Positions 3,479-40,148 of a stretch of DNA of 64,000 nt are shown here, in pieces. Location: the sequence record PZ091942.1, one strand, 5' to 3'. How positions within the stretch are numbered: position 1 is the stretch's first letter; each line of letters starts with the position of its first letter. This DNA comes from a phage. Made by a program: the position numbers and the translations under genes. The notes beneath the pieces are model-generated. The model did no database searches, was not told the origin of the DNA, and saw only the letters and a list, made by a program, of their open reading frames with translations.

Positions 3479-5020
3479 TTAGTAACTCGAATTCCATCTG
3501 TTAATATTTTCTTGATAAAGCGACGAGCTACCATAGCTAGCGTCATGCTTAGACCGACCTCTGTGTGTAACAGAACACGCTGAATATCGCATTGCATCCA
3601 TAAGGTCATCATGTTCTTTAATAATCTTACCAACTTTTCGATGGTAACGTGCTTTCTCTTCAAAGAGCTTAGCACATGAGGTAGTATTAAAGATTTTGAA
3701 TCGACCTGACATCATACGTTCACGAATATCAGTAATTCCTGGCTCCACAAAGAAGTTCTTCTTACCATCCATTCCGATCTTGTTATGGAAGGTCTCACTT
3801 TGTACGTTAACACCTGCATTTTTATAGAATTGAGCTACAGAAGCACCACTACCCTTCTCGGTATTGTCCGCATCATGAGGTAGTATCACTGGAATCCACT
3901 GTCCACGTCCGTTAATTGCAGGAGCATGATACACTGGAGTGAAGCCGCTTTCTTTATAGCAGTCATAAACGTAGATTGTATCGGTGTTCGCATCGTATGC
4001 TGACCATACAGCTGCCGTCGGGTGATCAATACCAATATCAATGGCACATACGCGTTTCCATGTCTCAGGAATTTCAAACGGGTCACACTTAATTGAATCA
4101 TCAGATACATCGTAAATCAAACCTGAACCCAACAGAGGCATACCTTTAGAGCGCATTTCTAATTGCCACGCTGGAATACCTTCAGTCATATCTTTAATAT
4201 CTTGTTCAGAGATGTGTCCACCTATATCGACATGTGCATCCCACCAAGAAGCGTTCTGGAAATACAGAGAACCTGTGTTCTCGTCCCCTTCACCTTTCAT
4301 AAACTTGTCCACCAGCTCTGTTAAACCGTTCTCTGGTGTTGCTGTAATAGTAACTAAACCTTTAGTAGTAAGTGTACGTGTAACGCACTGAGAGAAAATT
4401 GCCATACTTTCGTAAGGATCTTCTTCGTCCAGCCAAATATAGTCCACTGTAGCACCCATTAATGTGTGTTCACCCTGTTGGGTAGAACGGAATTCTAACG
4501 TACTCAGCCCATCGAATTCACCTCTAGCGTTTTGGTGCTTGATTTGTACGATTTGTAATTTATTACCATCTCGTTCAATTGTGTCTATGACAATTGCATC
4601 ACGAGGAATAACTCCTGTTCCTATTAGGTTGGTGTCCTTTCCGATTGGTGTACCAAACAACTCCTTTTGCAATACCTTTCTTGTAGAGTCCCCTGTAATC
4701 CCTACTGCCCAAGCCAATATGGGTCGATTAAATCTATATCCTGTCCACCAAGTTGGATAGCGACCTGTGACATGACAAGCAAACTCGTATGCCTCGCTGT
4801 AAGATTTACCAACACGGTTCGCTGCACACAAAAATCTAAAGCGATGCTTCAATCCTGCTGCATAAAACTCTTTCTGAAACTGGTATGCTTTGAAAGCTAG
4901 AATCCTATTATACTTTCTCCATTGATCTCTATCCTTCAGCATTTCAAGCAGAGCCTTTTTCTCCTCTGTCGTAAGCTTGTCTCCAGTTAGTGCTTCATAT
5001 ATTTCTTTATCTAATGACAT
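3479..5020 (-). CDS. terL: terminase large subunit
   Basis: Track ORF 3479..5149 trimmed to internal ATG at 5020 with GGAGGA SD; Walker-A-like AANRVGKS; C-terminal nuclease-like acidic motifs. Confidence 0.85.
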   Translation of the reverse strand: MSLDKEIYEALTGDKLTTEEKKALLEMLKDRDQWRKYNRILAFKAYQFQKEFYAAGLKHRFRFLCAANRVGKSYSEAYEFACHVTGRYPTWWTGYRFNRPILAWAVGITGDSTRKVLQKELFGTPIGKDTNLIGTGVIPRDAIVIDTIERDGNKLQIVQIKHQNARGEFDGLSTLEFRSTQQGEHTLMGATVDYIWLDEEDPYESMAIFSQCVTRTLTTKGLVTITATPENGLTELVDKFMKGEGDENTGSLYFQNASWWDAHVDIGGHISEQDIKDMTEGIPAWQLEMRSKGMPLLGSGLIYDVSDDSIKCDPFEIPETWKRVCAIDIGIDHPTAAVWSAYDANTDTIYVYDCYKESGFTPVYHAPAINGRGQWIPVILPHDADNTEKGSGASVAQFYKNAGVNVQSETFHNKIGMDGKKNFFVEPGITDIRERMMSGRFKIFNTTSCAKLFEEKARYHRKVGKIIKEHDDLMDAMRYSACSVTHRGRSKHDASYGSSSLYQENINRWNSSY

Positions 5021-7787: not shown

Positions 7788-8660
7788 ATGTCTAAAGTAG
7801 CAATTAACCAATTGAACAAAGCAAACGAAAGTCTTTCCTCTTTAGGCTTAACCGTTGGTAGTCCTGATGCGTGGATGGAAAACGAAAGCGCACGTAAAGG
7901 ATTCAAAAACTCAATCATGTTGGCTTGCTTGATCATCAATTCTACTGCGAACGCTTTACAGTGTGAAGATGAAAGCACGTTCAAAGAAAACGGTTTTACC
8001 GATATGCAGGACGCTATTAATTGTTACATTCAGGCAAATTTAGACAGTTGGAATCAGAAAGATTGGCCGGAATCATGCCGCGATGTGAAAGCTGAATTAT
8101 CCCGCTTGTCTGTCATGGTTGAAGCATGGAACAAGAAAAATAAGAAACAGCCAATCAAGCCCACTGTTGCAAGTAAGATTATGAAGTCTATTAATCTGGC
8201 AAGTTATGCACTGGTTGCAGCAATCGGTGTTAGTGCACTGGTAACTTCTCTTTCTGATAAGGCTGTGGCTAGTCCTACTCCTGCAACTGATGCGGCTAGT
8301 GTCTTCGTTAGTTCCATCAATAAAGGTTGGATGATTTGCAACGGTGCAGATAGTGACACTAATCAAGTAGTTTTAAAGGTTAAATTTAGTAACGTTTCCC
8401 GTAGTGGTCTGGTTGTTAGTACCAAAACATTGGACAATCAGGGCAATGAAGATTTAGTCTTAAAGCGTAGTGATAATGATCCCGAACTAGTCACATTTGG
8501 TACTGTACAACATTACAGCCATGCGAAAGCTGTCACGAATCTGGTGAGTTATGGTCCGGTTAATGAGTCGATGATCGCTACCACTGTTTATAATAATGCT
8601 GATAACGCTGTTTATACCGTTCACGTTAATTTAGCCAACTGTATTAAGGCTAGTAAATAA
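7788..8660 (+). CDS. hypothetical early protein (290 aa)
   Basis: ORF track; GAAGGAA SD; first gene of plus-strand block. Confidence 0.7.
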   Translation: MSKVAINQLNKANESLSSLGLTVGSPDAWMENESARKGFKNSIMLACLIINSTANALQCEDESTFKENGFTDMQDAINCYIQANLDSWNQKDWPESCRDVKAELSRLSVMVEAWNKKNKKQPIKPTVASKIMKSINLASYALVAAIGVSALVTSLSDKAVASPTPATDAASVFVSSINKGWMICNGADSDTNQVVLKVKFSNVSRSGLVVSTKTLDNQGNEDLVLKRSDNDPELVTFGTVQHYSHAKAVTNLVSYGPVNESMIATTVYNNADNAVYTVHVNLANCIKASK

Positions 8661-8687
8661 ATAACCTATTTTTCAGGAGTGTAAAAC

Positions 8688-8939
8688 ATGGCTATCAAAG
8701 AAGTTAAATTATCTAGCGGCTTTTCTTGTTTTGTGTGTGATACTTTTATCGCGTTCGGCTTGCGAACTGGTGACGTAATACTGCCTACCGTTGCATTTTG
8801 TTCAATGAGTTTTAACGAGGCCAAAAAATGGCTTCAATTGGTGCGCATTGATATTAATCGCGATGACTTCCGATCGATCTATGTTGACGGTGATTTGTCG
8901 CTTGCTGGTCTTCTTGATTGTGATTTGCCAAAATGGTGA
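8688..8939 (+). CDS. hypothetical protein (83 aa)
   Basis: ORF track; CAGGAG SD. Confidence 0.6.
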   Translation: MAIKEVKLSSGFSCFVCDTFIAFGLRTGDVILPTVAFCSMSFNEAKKWLQLVRIDINRDDFRSIYVDGDLSLAGLLDCDLPKW

Positions 8940-9052
8940 CAAAAAAATGATTCATGATTATTTTTTTGCGTTGCTTGTTCGTTGTTACAGTGTCGTTATT
9001 CGTCGCTGATATGCTTTATTCTTATATCCTTTAATTAAGAAGGTTTATTGCT

Positions 9053-9418
9053 ATGTGGTTTATTAAATTCGTCATTAAAACGGTTGTAGGCTTTTTTCTG
9101 GTCATTCTTCTGTTGGGTGTATTACTATCGGCTATGGGTAGTGTAAAGGCTGCAACGTTTTCCCCTGCTACGGTGGAAGGTTTACAGTGTACCTATTTGA
9201 TAGAAAACTATTCGACTGGTAAAAAGTCACCTAAGGTTATTATTTTACATGTAAACGATTTCGATCATGTACAATCATACGATAAGACTATTCAACTGGT
9301 AAATGAATCCACTGGTAAACAAATCACGGTCGATCACTTGATGCGCTCATCGTTAACACTCTTTGATGAGTTTATGAATGAAATGGCATCCGGTAACGGT
9401 CAATGTGTAAATCCATAG
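9053..9418 (+). CDS. hypothetical membrane/secreted protein
   Basis: ORF track; AAGAAGG SD; hydrophobic N-terminal helix. Confidence 0.6.
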   Translation: MWFIKFVIKTVVGFFLVILLLGVLLSAMGSVKAATFSPATVEGLQCTYLIENYSTGKKSPKVIILHVNDFDHVQSYDKTIQLVNESTGKQITVDHLMRSSLTLFDEFMNEMASGNGQCVNP

Positions 9419-9494
9419 GCTTAATCTTTCTCCTTTATTGTGCCGTGGTCATGCCTATGGTCATAATCTATCTGATGCTTTAAAACCTCCCTAT

Positions 9495-9517
9495 AAGCCT
9501 CTTAATGAGGCTTTTTT
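9495..9517 (+). terminator. rho-independent terminator
   Basis: Stem AAGCCTC/GAGGCTT, loop TTAAT, followed by TTTTTT. Confidence 0.6.
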
Positions 9518-9679
9518 CATTTCTAAGGTGATTGCATACCTTACTACCTTTTAGCTCGCTATAGTGCGTTTTAGGCCGCTAAATATTGCTTTACAAGCCG
9601 TTTCCTATGATGTATCACGTTCGCCCGCTCTTTTACCTCCCTCATAGTGAAAAAGTTTAAAATATTTTGCTTTCCCCTA

Positions 9680-9707
9680 TTGCAACCTCAACTGATTGGC
9701 GTATACT
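9680..9707 (+). promoter_or_regulatory. candidate sigma70 promoter (TTGCAA-16-TATACT)
   Basis: Hexamers read directly; no ORF downstream. Confidence 0.35.
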
Positions 9708-9805
9708 CATTTCTATCGGGTACGATGTAAAACATACAAGGCAAGGAAACTTGCCCCGCTCTTTAAAAATCAGGCTAGAAAGTGAAAATATTCTTAAAAA
9801 GAGTA

Positions 9806-9833
9806 TTGACAGCCGGAAAGCCTGAACTATAAT
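9806..9833 (+). promoter_or_regulatory. near-consensus sigma70 promoter (TTGACA-16-TATAAT) with AT-rich UP-like region
   Basis: -35 9806-9811, -10 9828-9833; downstream ATG opens only a 7-codon frame. Confidence 0.6.
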
Positions 9834-10542
9834 GAGTGTAGAAAGACAAGATGACCGCTCAAGTAACTCCCTAGTGAGTGAAGCAAGTCAGACGTAGGCA
9901 GGCGGATACCATGCCCCCAAATAATCGTGGGTTAACTGATTATCAAGCGGTGTTATGTGAGCCGCACGCTCTTTAAAAACATGATTTGTCTTAAAGGTGG
10001 CGGTGACGTCATTACTATAAGGCGCTCAGTTAATCGGTAGAATTGATTCCTGATTCATACGTGACGCAGGCGGACAATAAGCAATATCAATAAGCCTTAT
10101 TTGTTCGATACTTTCAAAAGATTAATGCTTGAAAGCGTACTAGATTCCTAAAAGACAAATCAGACTTATCATCTTGCCCTTTCGCATAGATTCACGCGAG
10201 ATAAGGGAAAAGAATAAAAGAAGATGATAAAAAAGAGGTTGCAAACGTGGTTAAGATAGTTCATACTAACCACAAGTTAACAAAACAACGTTAACTAGTT
10301 CCCAAATCAACGTATCGCGGGAAAGGTGGCACATAGTGCAGCGAGTAGTTCGGGAGTAGGCGCCCCGTTAATGAATAAGTAAGCCTTTAATGATGCAGTG
10401 ATTAGCAGACACTATAAAAGGCTAAAACGCTCTTTAACAATATGAATCATGATTTTAGCCTCATCGCTTGATCTTCAATCAAATAAAGCTGATTGATATA
10501 TCCTCCCAATAGCGGGAACGACGAAAAAGATTAAAAAAGCGA

Positions 10543-10571
10543 TTGACAGCTAAAACATCATGGTCCATAAT
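10543..10571 (+). promoter_or_regulatory. near-consensus sigma70 promoter (TTGACA-17-CATAAT) with AT-rich upstream
   Basis: -35 10543-10548, -10 10566-10571; no start codon with SD in the next ~120 nt. Confidence 0.6.
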
Positions 10572-18830: not shown

Positions 18831-19106
18831 TATCGTGAAGGATTCTTACGAGAGTCCTTTGAGATAGGACTTCAGATCTCCTATCAACTAACCGCTCAAT
18901 GTTGAGCATTTTAATCACATAAGCCCCTTAAGGGCTGGGTTTAATGCCGGTAAGCGTTTTACGCTATCCACTACAGCATCGGATTGTTAGGTCTTACATG
19001 CAATATTAATCAATAGGATATGGGAGGATTCGTCCCCTCCCCCTATTTATGAAAGCATTCTTCCGAGAGTTCTCTCATAAATTGGTCCATAACTAAAGGT
19101 GGTTAA

Positions 19107-19361
19107 ATGAAAGTTAACAAACCAGCAGGTAAGAGTGCAATACCTCTCAGTGCTTTGCGACTTGGGGATTGCTTCATGTACCCTAACAGTGAAGATGGTG
19201 ATTTGTACATCTTATTATCTACCGAGTTCTCCACTCGACTGTGCATCAAGGGCGCGGACGAGCACAGACTTGTAGCCTGTCTTAACACAGGCCGAGCGAC
19301 AGCGCCTCGTAAAGATGTTGCTGTTATTCCTATCAAAGCTGAAGCAACTATTAAGGAGTAA
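19107..19361 (+). CDS. small protein, GDxF-motif paralog family
   Basis: ORF track; AAAGGTGG SD; LRLGDCF motif. Confidence 0.55.
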   Translation: MKVNKPAGKSAIPLSALRLGDCFMYPNSEDGDLYILLSTEFSTRLCIKGADEHRLVACLNTGRATAPRKDVAVIPIKAEATIKE

Positions 19362-19364
19362 GCA

Positions 19365-19628
19365 ATGGCTCTGACCATTAACAAAACTCGTATTGCGGAT
19401 ATTCCTCTAATGGTGGCAGGTGTTTCTATCGGCTCTTTCTTTACTTTGAAAGAAGATAAAGAACAAACCATTTACATGAAAGTAAACAAAAGCTCTAATG
19501 GTTGTGAATACCACCGAGCTGTGTCGATGCAGAGTGGATATGTTCGTAATATGGCATCCAATATGCCAGTTGGTGTTGTGTTTGAATCGGCAACTCTGGA
19601 TTTAGTGGAGAAGATTAGTGAGACGTAA
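19365..19628 (+). CDS. hypothetical small protein
   Basis: ORF track; AAGGAG SD. Confidence 0.55.
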   Translation: MALTINKTRIADIPLMVAGVSIGSFFTLKEDKEQTIYMKVNKSSNGCEYHRAVSMQSGYVRNMASNMPVGVVFESATLDLVEKISET

Positions 19629-19875
19629 AGATCATCCGAAGTATGTATCACTACTGGATGCAGTCCTTCTCTGCACATATTGGCTCCTCATTGTCGTTGG
19701 GGCTGTGCTGATGGTATGTGGTGTCGTACAGTTCTTTATGTATCTGCAAAGCGTGTTAGATATCACATTAGCTAACACTATAATCCTTGCAACTCTCGGT
19801 ATTATTGCTTTCTGTGTGATTGTCTTCTTCGTTTGGTTATCTATGAACGACGACTCTACACACACCTTCTATTGA
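19618..19875 (+). CDS. hypothetical membrane protein
   Basis: ORF track (GTG start, GGAGAAG SD); two hydrophobic helices. Confidence 0.45.
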   Translation: MRRKDHPKYVSLLDAVLLCTYWLLIVVGAVLMVCGVVQFFMYLQSVLDITLANTIILATLGIIAFCVIVFFVWLSMNDDSTHTFY

Positions 19876-19888
19876 CAGGAGAAAATCA

Positions 19889-20005
19889 GTGAGAAAACGT
19901 GCCTACTCTGAAGAAGAAATGGTTAACTTGAAAGGCTTCGGTCAACGACAGCCTGACGGTTCAGTTATCTGGTACATTAACGGACAGAAAAAGGCAAGTA
20001 AATAA
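19889..20005 (+). CDS. hypothetical small protein (38 aa)
   Basis: GTG start 7 nt after CAGGAG SD; below track cutoff. Confidence 0.35.
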   Translation: MRKRAYSEEEMVNLKGFGQRQPDGSVIWYINGQKKASK

Positions 20006-20073
20006 GCCCTCTTCTCTCCTCCCTTTAGCTACTATGACGCCTCTCTTTTCGGCGCTGTTTTGGAGCTTCAAAA

Positions 20074-20487
20074 ATGTCTGGGAAATTCCCCAACGTAAGC
20101 AAGAAATTGGCTTACCTCACGTATAAAGAAAACATTGATCTTCTGGTCAAACTTTATCCGGCTTCATTCAACAAGCAATTCCCTCTTCCTTTGGAGCTTA
20201 ACATCCATAAGGAGATCGCCCGTAAGACCGGTTGGTCAGCGGAGAAAACAAGCATGGTGCTCAACATCTGGACTACTCGTATGGAGTATGTGATGATGGC
20301 CTGTAGCACTGGTAAACGCTTCAAGCTGCACTCTGTAGCTATGAAGATCCGTAGTCCTATTGACCCTGAGCCAATGGCTGGGTTCAGCAGCCGTCTGAAA
20401 TCTTTCCGTGATCGTGGTCGTGTAGTGAAGTTTAAGCACGACTTCTCTTATAAGTTTGGATACGAAGCGTTCCAATTCGTTGTTTAA
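20074..20487 (+). CDS. ProQ/FinO-domain-like RNA-binding protein (putative)
   Basis: ORF track; by-eye alignment to E. coli ProQ N-terminal domain (LYPASF~RFPHCF, PLPLELNIHKEI~PLKIGIFQDL, SAEKTSMVLNIWTTRMEYV~SKTQLRSALRLYTSSWRYL). Confidence 0.55.
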   Translation: MSGKFPNVSKKLAYLTYKENIDLLVKLYPASFNKQFPLPLELNIHKEIARKTGWSAEKTSMVLNIWTTRMEYVMMACSTGKRFKLHSVAMKIRSPIDPEPMAGFSSRLKSFRDRGRVVKFKHDFSYKFGYEAFQFVV

Positions 20488-20515
20488 TCTCTCTTTAATA
20501 TAAGGTAATAAAAAC

Positions 20516-20749
20516 ATGTCTAAAGTTAGCGCAATTGATGCCATCCGTCAGCCGTTCCAGTTTCAGTCCAAGTCAACTCAGACCCAAAGTGAACCGCGTC
20601 AGATTCGTCTGGGTGGTACAGAGAAGTCTGTGTTTGATATTGCGAAAAACAAAAGCGTAACCATCGTCGAAGGTGGTGAGCTGGTTAATGTTTCCCATCG
20701 TATCCGCACTGGCAAAACTGCCAAAGATCGTGCTAAGAAAGGTCTGTAA
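20516..20749 (+). CDS. hypothetical protein
   Basis: ORF track; AAGGT SD. Confidence 0.55.
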   Translation: MSKVSAIDAIRQPFQFQSKSTQTQSEPRQIRLGGTEKSVFDIAKNKSVTIVEGGELVNVSHRIRTGKTAKDRAKKGL

Positions 20750-21000
20750 TGCAAATTGCTAATAAAACCCCTCCTGAATCAATTACCCAAGTAAAGGATA
20801 TGTCACCGGGAGATGTATTTCGTGCAACGGAATATCCGGGGGATTTCTTTATTCGAATCCCCTCAGCATCTGTTGGTGGCATCGCTAAACCGGTAACAGC
20901 AGTTCAGCTAAGTACGGGTCATCTCTTCCGTTTAGAGATTGATATGGTTGTGATTCCTGTTCCAACAGCAATCCTCCGCTTCGACGGAGCCACAGAGTAA
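20749..21000 (+). CDS. small protein, GDxF-motif paralog family
   Basis: ORF track; TAATG overlap; MSPGDVFRATEYPGDFF. Confidence 0.55.
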   Translation: MQIANKTPPESITQVKDMSPGDVFRATEYPGDFFIRIPSASVGGIAKPVTAVQLSTGHLFRLEIDMVVIPVPTAILRFDGATE

Positions 21001-21002
21001 CA

Positions 21003-21140
21003 TCTATAGCCCTTGTGAGTATCAGAGGGCTATGTGAGCTATTCTGGCTCAACTAACCTAAACTTAATTTAATCTTACCCGTATGGGGCCGATGCTAGGG
21101 AGAGGAACAGTCCTCGAACATCCGTCGGATAGAATATTTT
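21003..21140 (+). repeat. conserved intergenic hairpin element, copy B
   Basis: Same TAGCCCT...AGGGCTA hairpin and downstream blocks as 15825-15960; begins 3 nt after a stop codon as copy A does. Confidence 0.6.
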
Positions 21141-21241
21141 AAGAGCAGGTTATCCACAGATATTGGGTGATATCTATTTAATTGGCCTTAAAGCTTGGCT
21201 CTCTTAGGAGAGTCCTTTTTTAAGTTCAAAGAAGAGGTTGT

Positions 21242-37431: not shown

Positions 37432-37990
37432 TAATGTCTTCGACTTACCAGAACTGACACGAGTGGGTTCTAGCAACCCATTCTCTACAACTGACTCTTC
37501 TATCTCTCGTCTAGAGGGAATGAATAAACTGATCAGTGGTAACAGTCTAGAGCACATCCTATGCGGTGTGCAGGCTAACCTTGAGCTTCTACACATCAAA
37601 GCAAAGAATTATCACTGGAACGTCTCTGGAGCTGGTTTCCAAGGTGTTCATGGTATGTTCGATGAATTAGAAGACTATGCTCGTGAAACTGGTGATCGGG
37701 TAGCAGAGCGAATGCGTTATCACTGTATTAAAGTGGATGCAACAGCTAGTAGCTATCTTGGTTGTGCTTGGTTCCGAGAAGGTAACGCTGATCTCGACAT
37801 GGACGGTATGCTTTCCGACATGTGCATGACTCTTATGTGTATGATTGAGAAGATGGATGAGTTTGATTCAGACTTGTGCACCTATCCAGTAGACCAGAGT
37901 ATGCTTCAAGAAATTAATGAAGGTCTTGGCAAGTTCTGTTACTTCGTCAAGAGCAACATGTCCCACTCTAGTGGCGATGTGTCTTACTAA
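37424..37990 (+). CDS. Dps/ferritin-like protein
   Basis: ORF track; GAGGGAG SD; LQANLELLHIKAKNYHWNVSGAGFQGVHGMFDELEDY matches Dps signature. Confidence 0.55.
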   Translation: MHNNVFDLPELTRVGSSNPFSTTDSSISRLEGMNKLISGNSLEHILCGVQANLELLHIKAKNYHWNVSGAGFQGVHGMFDELEDYARETGDRVAERMRYHCIKVDATASSYLGCAWFREGNADLDMDGMLSDMCMTLMCMIEKMDEFDSDLCTYPVDQSMLQEINEGLGKFCYFVKSNMSHSSGDVSY

Positions 37991-38053
37991 TCAAACCTCC
38001 GCCCTGTCTCTTTGTTTAAGAGGTGGGGCGAACTTCTTTATAAGGATATGAAT

Positions 38054-38233
38054 ATGTTTTCAGCAATCGTATGGTCTGTGTGGGCAATTTTTGTTGGTGG
38101 TATCGTTTATCTGGCTCAGAAGCAGATGCTTAAAGAGAATCCAAATGATGCTAAACCTATTAAACATGGTAGCATTGCTCTGGTAGTTTTCTCTGTTGTC
38201 ATTCCTTTCCTTCTCCACCTGTTGACTGCATAA
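38054..38233 (+). CDS. small membrane protein, tandem paralog 1
   Basis: ATG 38054 with AAGGA SD inside track ORF 38012..38233 (TTG); two hydrophobic helices. Confidence 0.45.
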   Translation: MFSAIVWSVWAIFVGGIVYLAQKQMLKENPNDAKPIKHGSIALVVFSVVIPFLLHLLTA

Positions 38234-38242
38234 GGGTTTGAT

Positions 38243-38428
38243 ATGATTTCACTGATTGTGTGGGCCGTGTGGTCATTAATAGTTGGTACTGTTATATATA
38301 AAGCTCGAAATTTAGCAATTAAAGAAAACCCAGCAGAAGAGGATGTTAAAGCTATCAAGCTGGGTAGTGTTGTTCTGGTACATTTTGCTATAACACTACC
38401 TCTTGTTATTATTCTTTGTATGCTATAA
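38243..38428 (+). CDS. small membrane protein, tandem paralog 2
   Basis: ORF track; AAGGG SD; similar two-helix layout and KENP motif. Confidence 0.5.
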   Translation: MISLIVWAVWSLIVGTVIYKARNLAIKENPAEEDVKAIKLGSVVLVHFAITLPLVIILCML

Positions 38429-38618
38429 GGAATCCAAAGAGTGAAACTAAACCTACCTGAAGAATTACAAGCACATGCCATTATCGTTAGTGGCTGTGTG
38501 ATGGGTCTTGGTCAAACAAAGAAGATTGCTCACGACTTAGCAAAAGGTCAGTATAAATCTTTTATTGTTGTTCCTGCTACCCAGCGTCATATCAACCTGT
38601 TTATTAACAAGGAATAGA

Positions 38619-38897
38619 ATGAGTAAAGTAATTAAGTTTTATAGTAATTCATGTGCTCCATGTGCAGCTATGGCTCCTGTGTTTAAGAAGGTTGTAGCTG
38701 ATTACAACGTAGAGGTTGAAGAAGTAAATATCTCTGAAGGTGATGGTCGAGAGCGAGCCATTGAATACGGTGTTCGCAGTATCCCAGCCTTTGTTGTCCC
38801 TGACCGTAATAGTGGTGCACATTATAGTTTATCAGGTATGCAGACCGAAGCAAACCTGAAAGCATTTTTGGATACAGCTCTGAATGGTAATCGATGA
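38619..38897 (+). CDS. thioredoxin/glutaredoxin-like protein (CxxC)
   Basis: ATG 38619 with AAGGA SD inside track ORF 38565..38897; FYSNSCAPC active-site-like motif. Confidence 0.7.
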   Translation: MSKVIKFYSNSCAPCAAMAPVFKKVVADYNVEVEEVNISEGDGRERAIEYGVRSIPAFVVPDRNSGAHYSLSGMQTEANLKAFLDTALNGNR

Positions 38898-39354
38898 TTT
38901 AGAGTATATCCCCGAAACTGGAGAGTTCTTCCGAAATGGTAAGAAGTTAGGAGGAACTCGAAGTAAGTACATAACCCTACGGTTTAAAGGGAAGGTACAC
39001 AAAGCTCATAAAGTGGCATGGTTCTTTTATTATGGAGAATGGCCTTCTTCTCAGATAGATCATATCGACAGAAACAAGAAGAACAACTCAATACAGAACT
39101 TAAGACTGGTAGACACTTCGACAAACTGCCACAACCAGTTCGGGGCTAGAGTATCAAACAAGGAAACAGGGCTTCAAGGTGTTAAGGTTGTCAAATATAG
39201 ATCAGGGACTATTAGATATAGAGCTGTTATCTGTATTGATAAAGTAGACATACATCTAGGTATGTATGGCACTGCCGAAGAAGCCCATCAAGTTTACATG
39301 AATCGAAAAAAGGAACTTTTAATTGAACGAACAACTACAAGCAACACTGATTGA
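38884..39354 (+). CDS. HNH homing endonuclease
   Basis: ORF track; IDHIDRNKKNNSIQNLRL HNH motif; sits between trx-like and thyX-like genes. Confidence 0.7.
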   Translation: MVIDDLEYIPETGEFFRNGKKLGGTRSKYITLRFKGKVHKAHKVAWFFYYGEWPSSQIDHIDRNKKNNSIQNLRLVDTSTNCHNQFGARVSNKETGLQGVKVVKYRSGTIRYRAVICIDKVDIHLGMYGTAEEAHQVYMNRKKELLIERTTTSNTD

Positions 39355-39976
39355 AGCAATGGGTAGTGACAAATCTGTAGTCAACGCAGCTAGGGTATCT
39401 TTCGGTGTTGTTCGAGAAGGTGACTTAAATGAGAGAGACACAAAACTTATCAATTTCCTTGCACGGGAAAAACACTGCACGCCTTTCCGTCATCCGACAA
39501 TTAGCTTCCGATGCAAAGCGCCAATCGCAATTGCGAGACAGTTGGGCAAGCATCAAGTTGGATTCTCGTGGAACGAAATGTCCCGGAGGTATAAAGATGG
39601 AGCAGTTGAATGCTTTGTCCCTGAAGAGATTTTTGAAAGACCTTCAGACCTCCATGCAGGTTCGGGGAGCCTCCTTATCGGAGCCAATGGTGAAGCAGCA
39701 AAAGTAGCCTTTGAACGTGCTTATACTTTAGCTGTTCAGACATACGAAGGGTTGTTATCAGAAGGTGTTGCACCAGAACAAGCTCGATTCGTATTGCCTC
39801 AGGGCATGATCACTGAGTGGGTCTGGACAGGTTCTTTATTCGGTTGGTCAGAGTTATGTCGTCAGCGACTGTCAGACCACGCTCAGTATGAAGTACGAGT
39901 GTTTGCATCAACTATTGATGAAGAGCTTCGTAAAATCTACCCAATCTCTTGGGATGCATTACGTGAAGCCCACTAA
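39323..39976 (+). CDS. thyX: flavin-dependent thymidylate synthase (ThyX)-like protein
   Basis: TTG start with AAAGGAA SD; AARVSF, TPFRH, KAPIAIARQ, NEMSRRY, RFVLPQ...WT, SDHAQYE align with T. maritima ThyX; RHR signature reads KHQ. Confidence 0.7.
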   Translation: MNEQLQATLIEAMGSDKSVVNAARVSFGVVREGDLNERDTKLINFLAREKHCTPFRHPTISFRCKAPIAIARQLGKHQVGFSWNEMSRRYKDGAVECFVPEEIFERPSDLHAGSGSLLIGANGEAAKVAFERAYTLAVQTYEGLLSEGVAPEQARFVLPQGMITEWVWTGSLFGWSELCRQRLSDHAQYEVRVFASTIDEELRKIYPISWDALREAH

Positions 39977-40148
39977 AGCATGTAGCTTCTGTCGAAAGCA
40001 GAAGCTTCTTATCAATTTCAAGCTGAACGAGGAAACAGGTTTGGGTCATGCTTTTTGTCATGATTGCAGGCACTACCTCGAACAGAAGCAATACATAAAC
40101 TGGTTGCATTACTGCAACCCTAACATCTATAAGCACAAGGTTATCTAA

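Follow-up and report, generated by a model that had tools for sequence, protein, structure and literature searches.

A divergent FinO-domain protein of Suseptimavirus phages and its predicted action at RNA 3′ ends

The phage record PZ091942.1 was analysed over a stretch of 64,000 nucleotides (hereafter, the window), in which an ORF of 137 amino acids (aa) lies in a run of small genes close to structured intergenic segments. The initial annotation had proposed that this ORF encodes a ProQ/FinO-domain RNA chaperone with structured RNA partners of its own. Does the locus encode a FinO-domain protein, on which RNAs would such a protein act, and are the structured RNAs around the gene among them? 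The features of the locus are collected in Table 1.

Table 1 Features of the locus in window coordinates. Residue counts refer to the 40 aligned relatives of the protein.
Feature	Position	Strand	Remarks
137-aa ProQ/FinO-domain CDS	20074–20487	+	ATG-start ORF; ortholog of ECBP2_0092 and SU7_91
FinO domain	aa ca. 10–110 (nt 20101–20403)		
Extra C-terminal helix	aa 114–128 (nt 20413–20457)		pLDDT ca. 96 (AF2)
Shine-Dalgarno GGAG	20062–20065	+	8 nt before the ATG of the FinO gene
3′-nucleotide pocket Tyr	Tyr72		ProQ Y70, RocC Y87; invariant (40/40)
3′-nucleotide pocket Arg	Arg82		ProQ R80, RocC R97; invariant (40/40)
Thr before the pocket	Thr67		ProQ T65, RocC T82; Thr in 20/40
N-cap Ser of the hairpin-binding helix	Ser55		ProQ S53, RocC S70; Ser/Thr in 30/40
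Basic N-cap residue 1	Ala56		ProQ K54, RocC K71; Lys/Arg in 8/40
Basic N-cap residue 2	Ser60		ProQ R58, RocC R75; Arg/Lys in 7/40
Beta-turn Gly	Asn43		ProQ G37, RocC G52; Gly in 35/40, Asn in 4/40
Conserved 38-aa ORF	19889–20005	+	GTG start; phrog_14557 (E 1e-27); ECBP2_0093
77-aa gene	20516–20749	+	downstream of the FinO gene; phrog_6662 and phrog_6570 for this and the 83-aa gene
83-aa gene	20749–21000	+	directly before element B; completes the operon
Intrinsic terminator of the operon	21197–21221 (hairpin 21197–21214)	+	7-bp stem, U6 tail
Structured RNA, copy A	15815–15943	+	R1 covariance model 120.4 bits; followed by terminator 16049–16073
Structured RNA, copy B	20997–21134	+	3′ UTR of the operon; R1 137.6 bits; fold z −2.7
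Third structured element	18855–19052	+	ORF-free; ca. 1 kb upstream of the FinO gene; fold z −4.2

The gene and the family of its product

The 137-aa ORF picked out by the initial annotation was borne out as a gene of the plus strand. It is preceded by a GGAG ribosome-binding site, at the equivalent position of which an RBS is annotated in the SU7 record, and it differs from its SU7 ortholog by 18 synonymous and 3 non-synonymous changes. Since the resulting dN/dS was as low as 0.037, the gene is real and under strong purifying selection. The gene region showed 97% identity to Escherichia phage ECBP2 and 92% identity to vB_EcoP_SU7, and the window, as these two phages, belongs to Suseptimavirus (Gordonclarkvirinae). 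No second FinO-like ORF was present within the 64-kb window, and the minus-strand ORFs that overlap the gene are mechanical. Weak promoter-like sites (20524–20497 and 20724–20697) and a weak terminator-like site (20093–20078) were seen on the minus strand, at a frequency not above chance.

Both ECBP2_0092 and SU7_91 are given as 'hypothetical protein' in their genome records, and the FinO protein goes unmentioned in the genome paper on SU7. In UniProt and BFVD, the SU7 and 7-11 proteins bear the name 'ProQ/FinO domain-containing protein'; since the SU7 ortholog has already been labelled in UniProt, the family assignment is not new. For some phage relatives, the annotation already reads 'ProQ/FINO family protein', 'RNA chaperone' or 'sRNA-binding protein'. 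A review of the family mentions FinO-domain proteins encoded by phages (PMC9977716), and one such protein, that of Shewanella phage KASIA, is recorded as lying in the early region (PMC8541194). Experimental work on any phage FinO-domain protein was not found in the literature.

Searches with the single sequence gave little. Pfam PF04352 (ProQ/FinO) was matched at aa 18–87 with 27.2 bits (E 4e-6), only 0.2 bits above the gathering score of 27.0 and thus marginal alone, and the PHROG family of the protein, 18901, is one of unknown function. BLASTP against the N-terminal domain of E. coli ProQ was not significant (E 1.8), phmmer of the protein against PDB returned chance matches only, and an NCBIfam search gave no ProQ match. 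No other Pfam domain was found in the protein; chance is taken to explain its weak Pfam matches to DUF7343 and ribosomal protein L31. When 1.84 billion representative proteins were searched exhaustively with HMMER, 45 relatives were retrieved; a word-indexed homolog search yielded one cluster only. PF04352 was matched by all 40 relatives that were aligned (best E 1.7e-20), and the family profile built from these 40 matched every solved FinO-domain protein in PDB, namely ProQ (5NB9, E 2.6e-15), RocC (7RGU, 2e-12), FinO (1DVO, 9e-11), Lpp1663 (6S10, 1e-9) and NMB1681 (3MW6, 1e-6). The sole further match of the profile in PDB was RecQ with an E value of 0.98.

An AlphaFold (AF2) model computed with the alignment reached a pLDDT of 91.1 and a pTM of 0.85, with helices at aa 10–27, 44–52, 56–66, 70–79 and 98–110 and strands at aa 81–83 and 93–95, in keeping with the FinO fold, which is mostly helical and contains a beta-hairpin; the single-sequence model was unusable (pLDDT 41.7). 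When Foldseek was run against PDB, ranks 1 to 26 were all FinO-domain structures (RocC, FinO, NMB1681 and Lpp1663) with a probability of 1.0, and the first match after these 26 had an E value of 0.6. The HMM search and structure prediction that the initial annotation had called for thus clearly upheld its ProQ/FinO assignment, with a profile match and a fold that resembled FinO-domain structures only. As for its by-eye alignment with ProQ, the motifs were recovered by hmmalign; pairwise similarity in BLASTP was not. These results indicate that the product is almost certainly a FinO-domain protein. It is a divergent member of the family, is an ortholog of no named protein, and its relationship to ProQ is visible by profile and fold methods only.

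Residues were mapped with hmmalign, and their roles were taken from the RocC-RNA structure paper (PMC9674577). Y28-P29-x-x-F32 of the phage protein aligned to F21-P22-x-x-F25 of ProQ, P39-L40-x-L42 to P33-L34-x-I36, W66-T67 together with Y72 to Y64-T65 and Y70, and R82-F-K-L85 to R80-V-D-L83. In RocC, the Tyr and Arg residues form the 3′-nucleotide pocket and are essential (PMC9674577); in the phage clade, the corresponding residues are those that do not vary (Table 1). K58 (RocC K73) and R69 (RocC R84) are also present, and Arg69 and Trp66 are invariant in the clade. The N-cap is where the phage protein departs from the family: its basic residues contact the stem phosphates in RocC, the R75D exchange lowers the affinity of RocC more than 100-fold (PMC9674577), and the N-cap Arg is ca. 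80% conserved across FinO-domain proteins. The altered N-cap may leave room for a changed binding mode. The predicted pI of the protein is 10.0, and its net charge is strongly positive. At the beta-turn, where the phage protein has Asn in the place of a nearly invariant Gly, Asn can take the same turn conformation.

The best structural matches were Legionella RocC (7RGT and 7RGU) and NMB1681 (3MW6), with target-normalised TM scores of 0.6 to 0.7 in Foldseek. Both share with the phage protein a single FinO domain and the conserved Tyr/Arg pocket, N-cap Ser and Thr, and NMB1681, the minimal ProQ of Neisseria, resembles it further in being without a second domain. However, identity is only ca. 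20%, and K71, R75 and G52 of RocC are Ala, Ser and Asn in the phage protein. Furthermore, while RocC and NMB1681 are chromosomal, the phage protein is encoded by a virulent phage and has the C-terminal helix. The best match of the sequence profile was E. coli ProQ, the FinO-domain protein present in the host of the phage. ProQ proper continues into a basic linker and a Tudor-like C-terminal domain, whereas in the phage protein a single helix follows the FinO domain, and the phage protein is not a recent capture of host proQ. Plasmid FinO (1DVO) and FopA have the same domain and are likewise encoded by mobile elements, and these founding members act on the element's own RNAs. In FinO/FopA-type systems, the protein is paired with a cognate cis-antisense RNA, the gene of which adjoins or overlaps the leader of the target mRNA. 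In contrast, the phage protein lacks FinO's long N-terminal helix, and no cis-antisense RNA partner is evident.

Distribution and neighbourhood of the gene

In tblastn searches, the protein was found at an identity of at least 95% in 22 phage records of Gordonclarkvirinae, and phage StefiGeyer_Bas88 encodes an identical protein. The DNA surrounding the gene is common to ca. 100 Gordonclarkvirinae records. In Kuravirus phages NJ01, SU10 and Bas92, which do not have the FinO gene, the 38-aa ORF adjoins the 77-aa gene directly; the 38-aa ORF, thus, marks the left side of the indel, the left junction of which lies near 20047 in the alignment with NJ01. Since the same operon occurs without the gene in the sister genus Kuravirus, and since the gene occurs in 22 records against the ca. 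100 that share the surrounding DNA, the FinO gene is accessory and genus-specific. An apparent 5′ remnant of the gene in Kuravirus, which would mean loss and not gain, was not significant (35 of 500 shuffles scored equally), and the GC content of the gene gave no sign of recent import.

Distant homologs with 28–41% identity were found in virulent phages of Erwinia, Salmonella, Aeromonas, Hafnia and Shewanella. Relatives of this clade include KASIA_p031 of Shewanella, the gp116-like proteins of Erwinia phages phiEa21-4 and phiEa104, AEK82037 of Salmonella phage 7-11 and Aeromonas LAh proteins, and the contigs that carry the closest metagenomic relatives reach 100 kb in length. Plasmid homologs were not found by tblastn among 72,556 plasmids. 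The 7-11-like proteins differ from the protein in the window by an extra C-terminal domain of ca. 100 aa. This domain is conserved, with the motif GN-HP(F/L)R-G ... T, in a sub-clade that includes AEK82037 (234 aa, 7983–8687) and its relatives P0012, P0014, P0018, P0027 and P0030. According to BFVD, 7-11 has another FinO-fold protein, G0X575, distinct from AEK82037. In phiEa104 (37585–39988) and 7-11 (7983–12232), the FinO homolog adjoins genes for a ribose-phosphate pyrophosphokinase and a nicotinamide phosphoribosyltransferase. This NAD-salvage pair of Erwinia Ounavirinae phiEa104 and Salmonella 7-11 is absent beside the FinO gene in the window.

The FinO gene is one of a series of small co-oriented genes that runs from 19107 to 21000. 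The 38-aa ORF in this series falls below the cut-off of the ORF list (min_aa 40). The polypyrimidine tract CCCTCTTCTCTCCTCCCTTT lies behind it (20006–20047) and has a nearly identical counterpart in Kuravirus. The proteins encoded at 19107–19361, 19365–19628 and 20749–21000 on the plus strand appear to be paralogs, since their PHROG families (7832, 12612 and 6570) cross-matched. The terminator that closes the operon is annotated in SU7 and conserved in NJ01 and 7-11, and it is predicted to be the canonical FinO-type ligand nearest to the gene. Similar short hairpins (TCTTACGAGAGTCCTTT-like) occur on the plus strand at operon boundaries, at 18841–18858, 19055–19075 and 21197–21214, and two or more of these resemble terminators. 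The early region also contains a tRNA gene at 17927–17999 on the plus strand (Rfam tRNA, 72.5 bits); in SU7, a tRNA-Arg of the early region lies ca. 2.2 kb upstream of the FinO ortholog, and the spacing in the window is the same. The genes that flank the FinO gene correspond by synteny to CDS 94 and 95 of SU10, and the early class of SU10 and phiEco32 comprises CDS 69–125 (PMC4281155; PMC8948821). Judging from the synteny with phiEco32 and SU10, the FinO gene is probably expressed early.

Predicted binding of RNA 3′ ends

Structured RNAs, as a rule terminator hairpins that carry a 3′-OH tail, are the usual ligands of the FinO family. With its invariant Tyr/Arg pocket, retained fold and positive charge, the phage protein probably binds RNAs at their 3′ ends, at terminator hairpins, in the canonical manner of RocC, FinO and ProQ. 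Counting against canonical binding are Ala56, Ser60 and Asn43, the narrow Pfam margin and the missing NCBIfam match. On balance, we assign a probability of roughly 60% to the reading that the gene encodes an accessory early protein that clamps the terminator ends of RNAs. The protein would be a minimal RNA-binding protein, consisting of one FinO domain and a C-terminal helix, that is made from the early host-takeover block. By homology, the pocket of Tyr72 and Arg82 would dock the 3′-terminal nucleotide of a terminated transcript, and the helix capped by Ser55 would contact the base of the terminator hairpin. As a result, the RNA 3′ end would be shielded from polyadenylation and 3′ exonucleases, or its pairing would be altered. 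Candidate targets are the terminated early transcripts of the phage, including the 3′ end of the protein's own operon, and host RNAs of the ProQ class.

By analogy with ProQ, which acts at the 3′ ends of RNAs to inhibit poly(A) polymerase (PMC12086684), protection of the bound RNAs from decay that depends on the 3′ end would be the best-supported consequence of binding by the phage protein. The larger members of the FinO family have flexible extensions. Since, judged by what is known of the family, these extensions are absent from the phage protein, a role as binder or protector seems more likely than one as matchmaker.

Structured RNAs and alternative readings

The two hairpin copies that the initial annotation had placed at 15825–15960 and 21003–21140 are real and related, and they carry compensatory base changes. 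Elements A and B have in common a 10-bp hairpin, a small hairpin, and a stem around an invariant 7x7 internal loop. In this loop, CUAGGG(A/C) lies opposite (A/G)AACAUC and a short inner hairpin is enclosed; covarying stems flank it. RNAalifold on 11 copies from six phages gave 24 pairs, nine of which showed compensatory double changes, and the G-U pairs of the element fall on the sense strand. All copies begin just after a stop codon and lie 60–110 nt upstream of an intrinsic terminator. Conservation of the element extends over Kuravirus, Suseptimavirus and, from a different family, the Salmonella phages 7-11 and SE131. The element could serve as a processing site or in antitermination, or it could be an RNA derived from the 3′ UTR. 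None of the intergenic elements corresponds to an Rfam family, and a loose scan of viral contigs with a DNA pattern of the element's core gave mostly chance matches.

The third element (18855–19052) closes with a GC hairpin, after which comes CCUAUUU, and two terminator-like hairpins flank the element. Its homologs were found in 151 phage records with 70–80% identity and with compensatory changes in several stems. They span Gordonclarkvirinae, Grimontviridae (PKM.Lu.22.1, 4549–4801) and the N4-like Gamaleyavirus (for example phi G17, 3501–3679). The element is a candidate small RNA of ca. 190 nt, shared by unrelated podophages, or a candidate leader.

Other parts of the initial description of this region were not borne out. 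A segment at 19994–20060 had been described as duplicated and terminator-containing; no second copy with up to three mismatches was found in the window, and the segment, the 5′ end of which overlaps the 3′ end of the 38-aa ORF, folded no better than shuffled sequences (z +0.67). The region had also been called promoter-rich. A scan for the sigma-70 consensus between 14 and 23 kb gave 11 sites against 21 expected from shuffles.

The initial annotation had further taken the structured RNAs to be the protein's own partners. On such a reading, the protein works specifically with A, B and/or the 18855–19052 element as an RNP that would control early gene expression, in the manner of FinO/FinP or RocC/RocR. 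Three covarying elements lie within 5 kb, each ending in or preceding a hairpin-plus-tail of the type that FinO proteins bind, and the FinO transcript has element B and the terminator as its 3′ end. FinO-bearing genomes outside the phage group were searched as a complete genome for phiEa104 and as partial loci for 7-11, SE131 and PKM.Lu.22.1. The covariance model found one A/B-type copy each in 7-11 and SE131, both of which have a FinO homolog, and in PKM.Lu.22.1 the third element lies ca. 1 kb upstream of the FinO homolog, a spacing as in the window. However, the R1 model found no match in the complete phiEa104 genome, and it detected both copies, at 106–139 bits, in SU10 and Bas92, which are without the gene. 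Element B occurs in 102 phage records as against 22 with the gene, and A/B elements are also present in ca. 75 phages without it. The third element extends to the N4-like Gamaleyavirus, whereas no N4-like phage was among the tblastn matches for the FinO protein. Moreover, phages with and without the FinO gene have similar terminators. Since the structured RNAs are present in FinO-less phages and A/B elements are missing from FinO-bearing phiEa104, the distribution of the RNAs is independent of the protein; their sole link to it is proximity, and a dedicated partnership is rather unlikely.

A second alternative is that the protein is directed at the host, competing with ProQ or replacing it on host sRNAs and mRNA 3′ ends. 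For example, labile antisense or antitoxin RNAs could be stabilised after the shut-off of sigma-70 transcription by the phage, so that the host is reprogrammed or abortive infection is prevented. The position of the gene among the early host-takeover genes (PMC8948821) is consistent with this, as is its accessory, genus-specific distribution, which fits a role in host range or counter-defence. In addition, many ProQ ligands are RNAs of toxin-antitoxin systems, prophages and transposons (PMC9977716), and FinO domains recognise structure over sequence and minimal ones can be global binders (PMC7272453). The case is purely inferential, however. A PADLOC search gave no matches, the FinO gene has no recognisable defence or anti-defence neighbours, and the changed N-cap residues may shift specificity away from ligands of the ProQ type. 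We therefore regard a host-directed role as doubtful.

The phage clade has lost the N-cap Arg, gained the invariant Arg69 and added a C-terminal helix. There is a slim chance that it recognises RNA in a new way and/or forms an RNP with A, B and the 18855–19052 element; if true, such an RNP with terminator-proximal RNAs would tune the fate of early transcripts or counter an RNA-based host response. Highly improbable is a repurposed domain, in which the FinO fold is kept, canonical RNA binding is lost and the protein acts on protein or DNA: A56, S60 and N43 in place of K54, R58 and G37, the non-basic R58-equivalent in 33 of the 40 relatives and the confidently modelled, clade-specific C-terminal helix would agree with it, but the invariance of the pocket Tyr and Arg, W66 and R69 is hard to explain without binding of RNA 3′ ends, and the prevalence of Ser or Thr at the N-cap and the positive charge also speak against it.

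The structured RNAs A, B and 18855–19052 are interesting in their own right, apart from the protein. For the protein itself, the preferred reading remains that of an accessory early protein that would clamp the 3′ ends of terminated transcripts. Among bacterial RNA chaperones, FinO-domain proteins make up the third major class, and those of virulent phages have only been recorded (PMC9977716; PMC8541194). Since the host is E. coli, the tools for ProQ are mature, Bas88 encodes an identical protein and the syntenic Kuravirus phages offer a 'minus' comparison, a role of the protein as a 3′-end binder of a lytic phage is directly testable.
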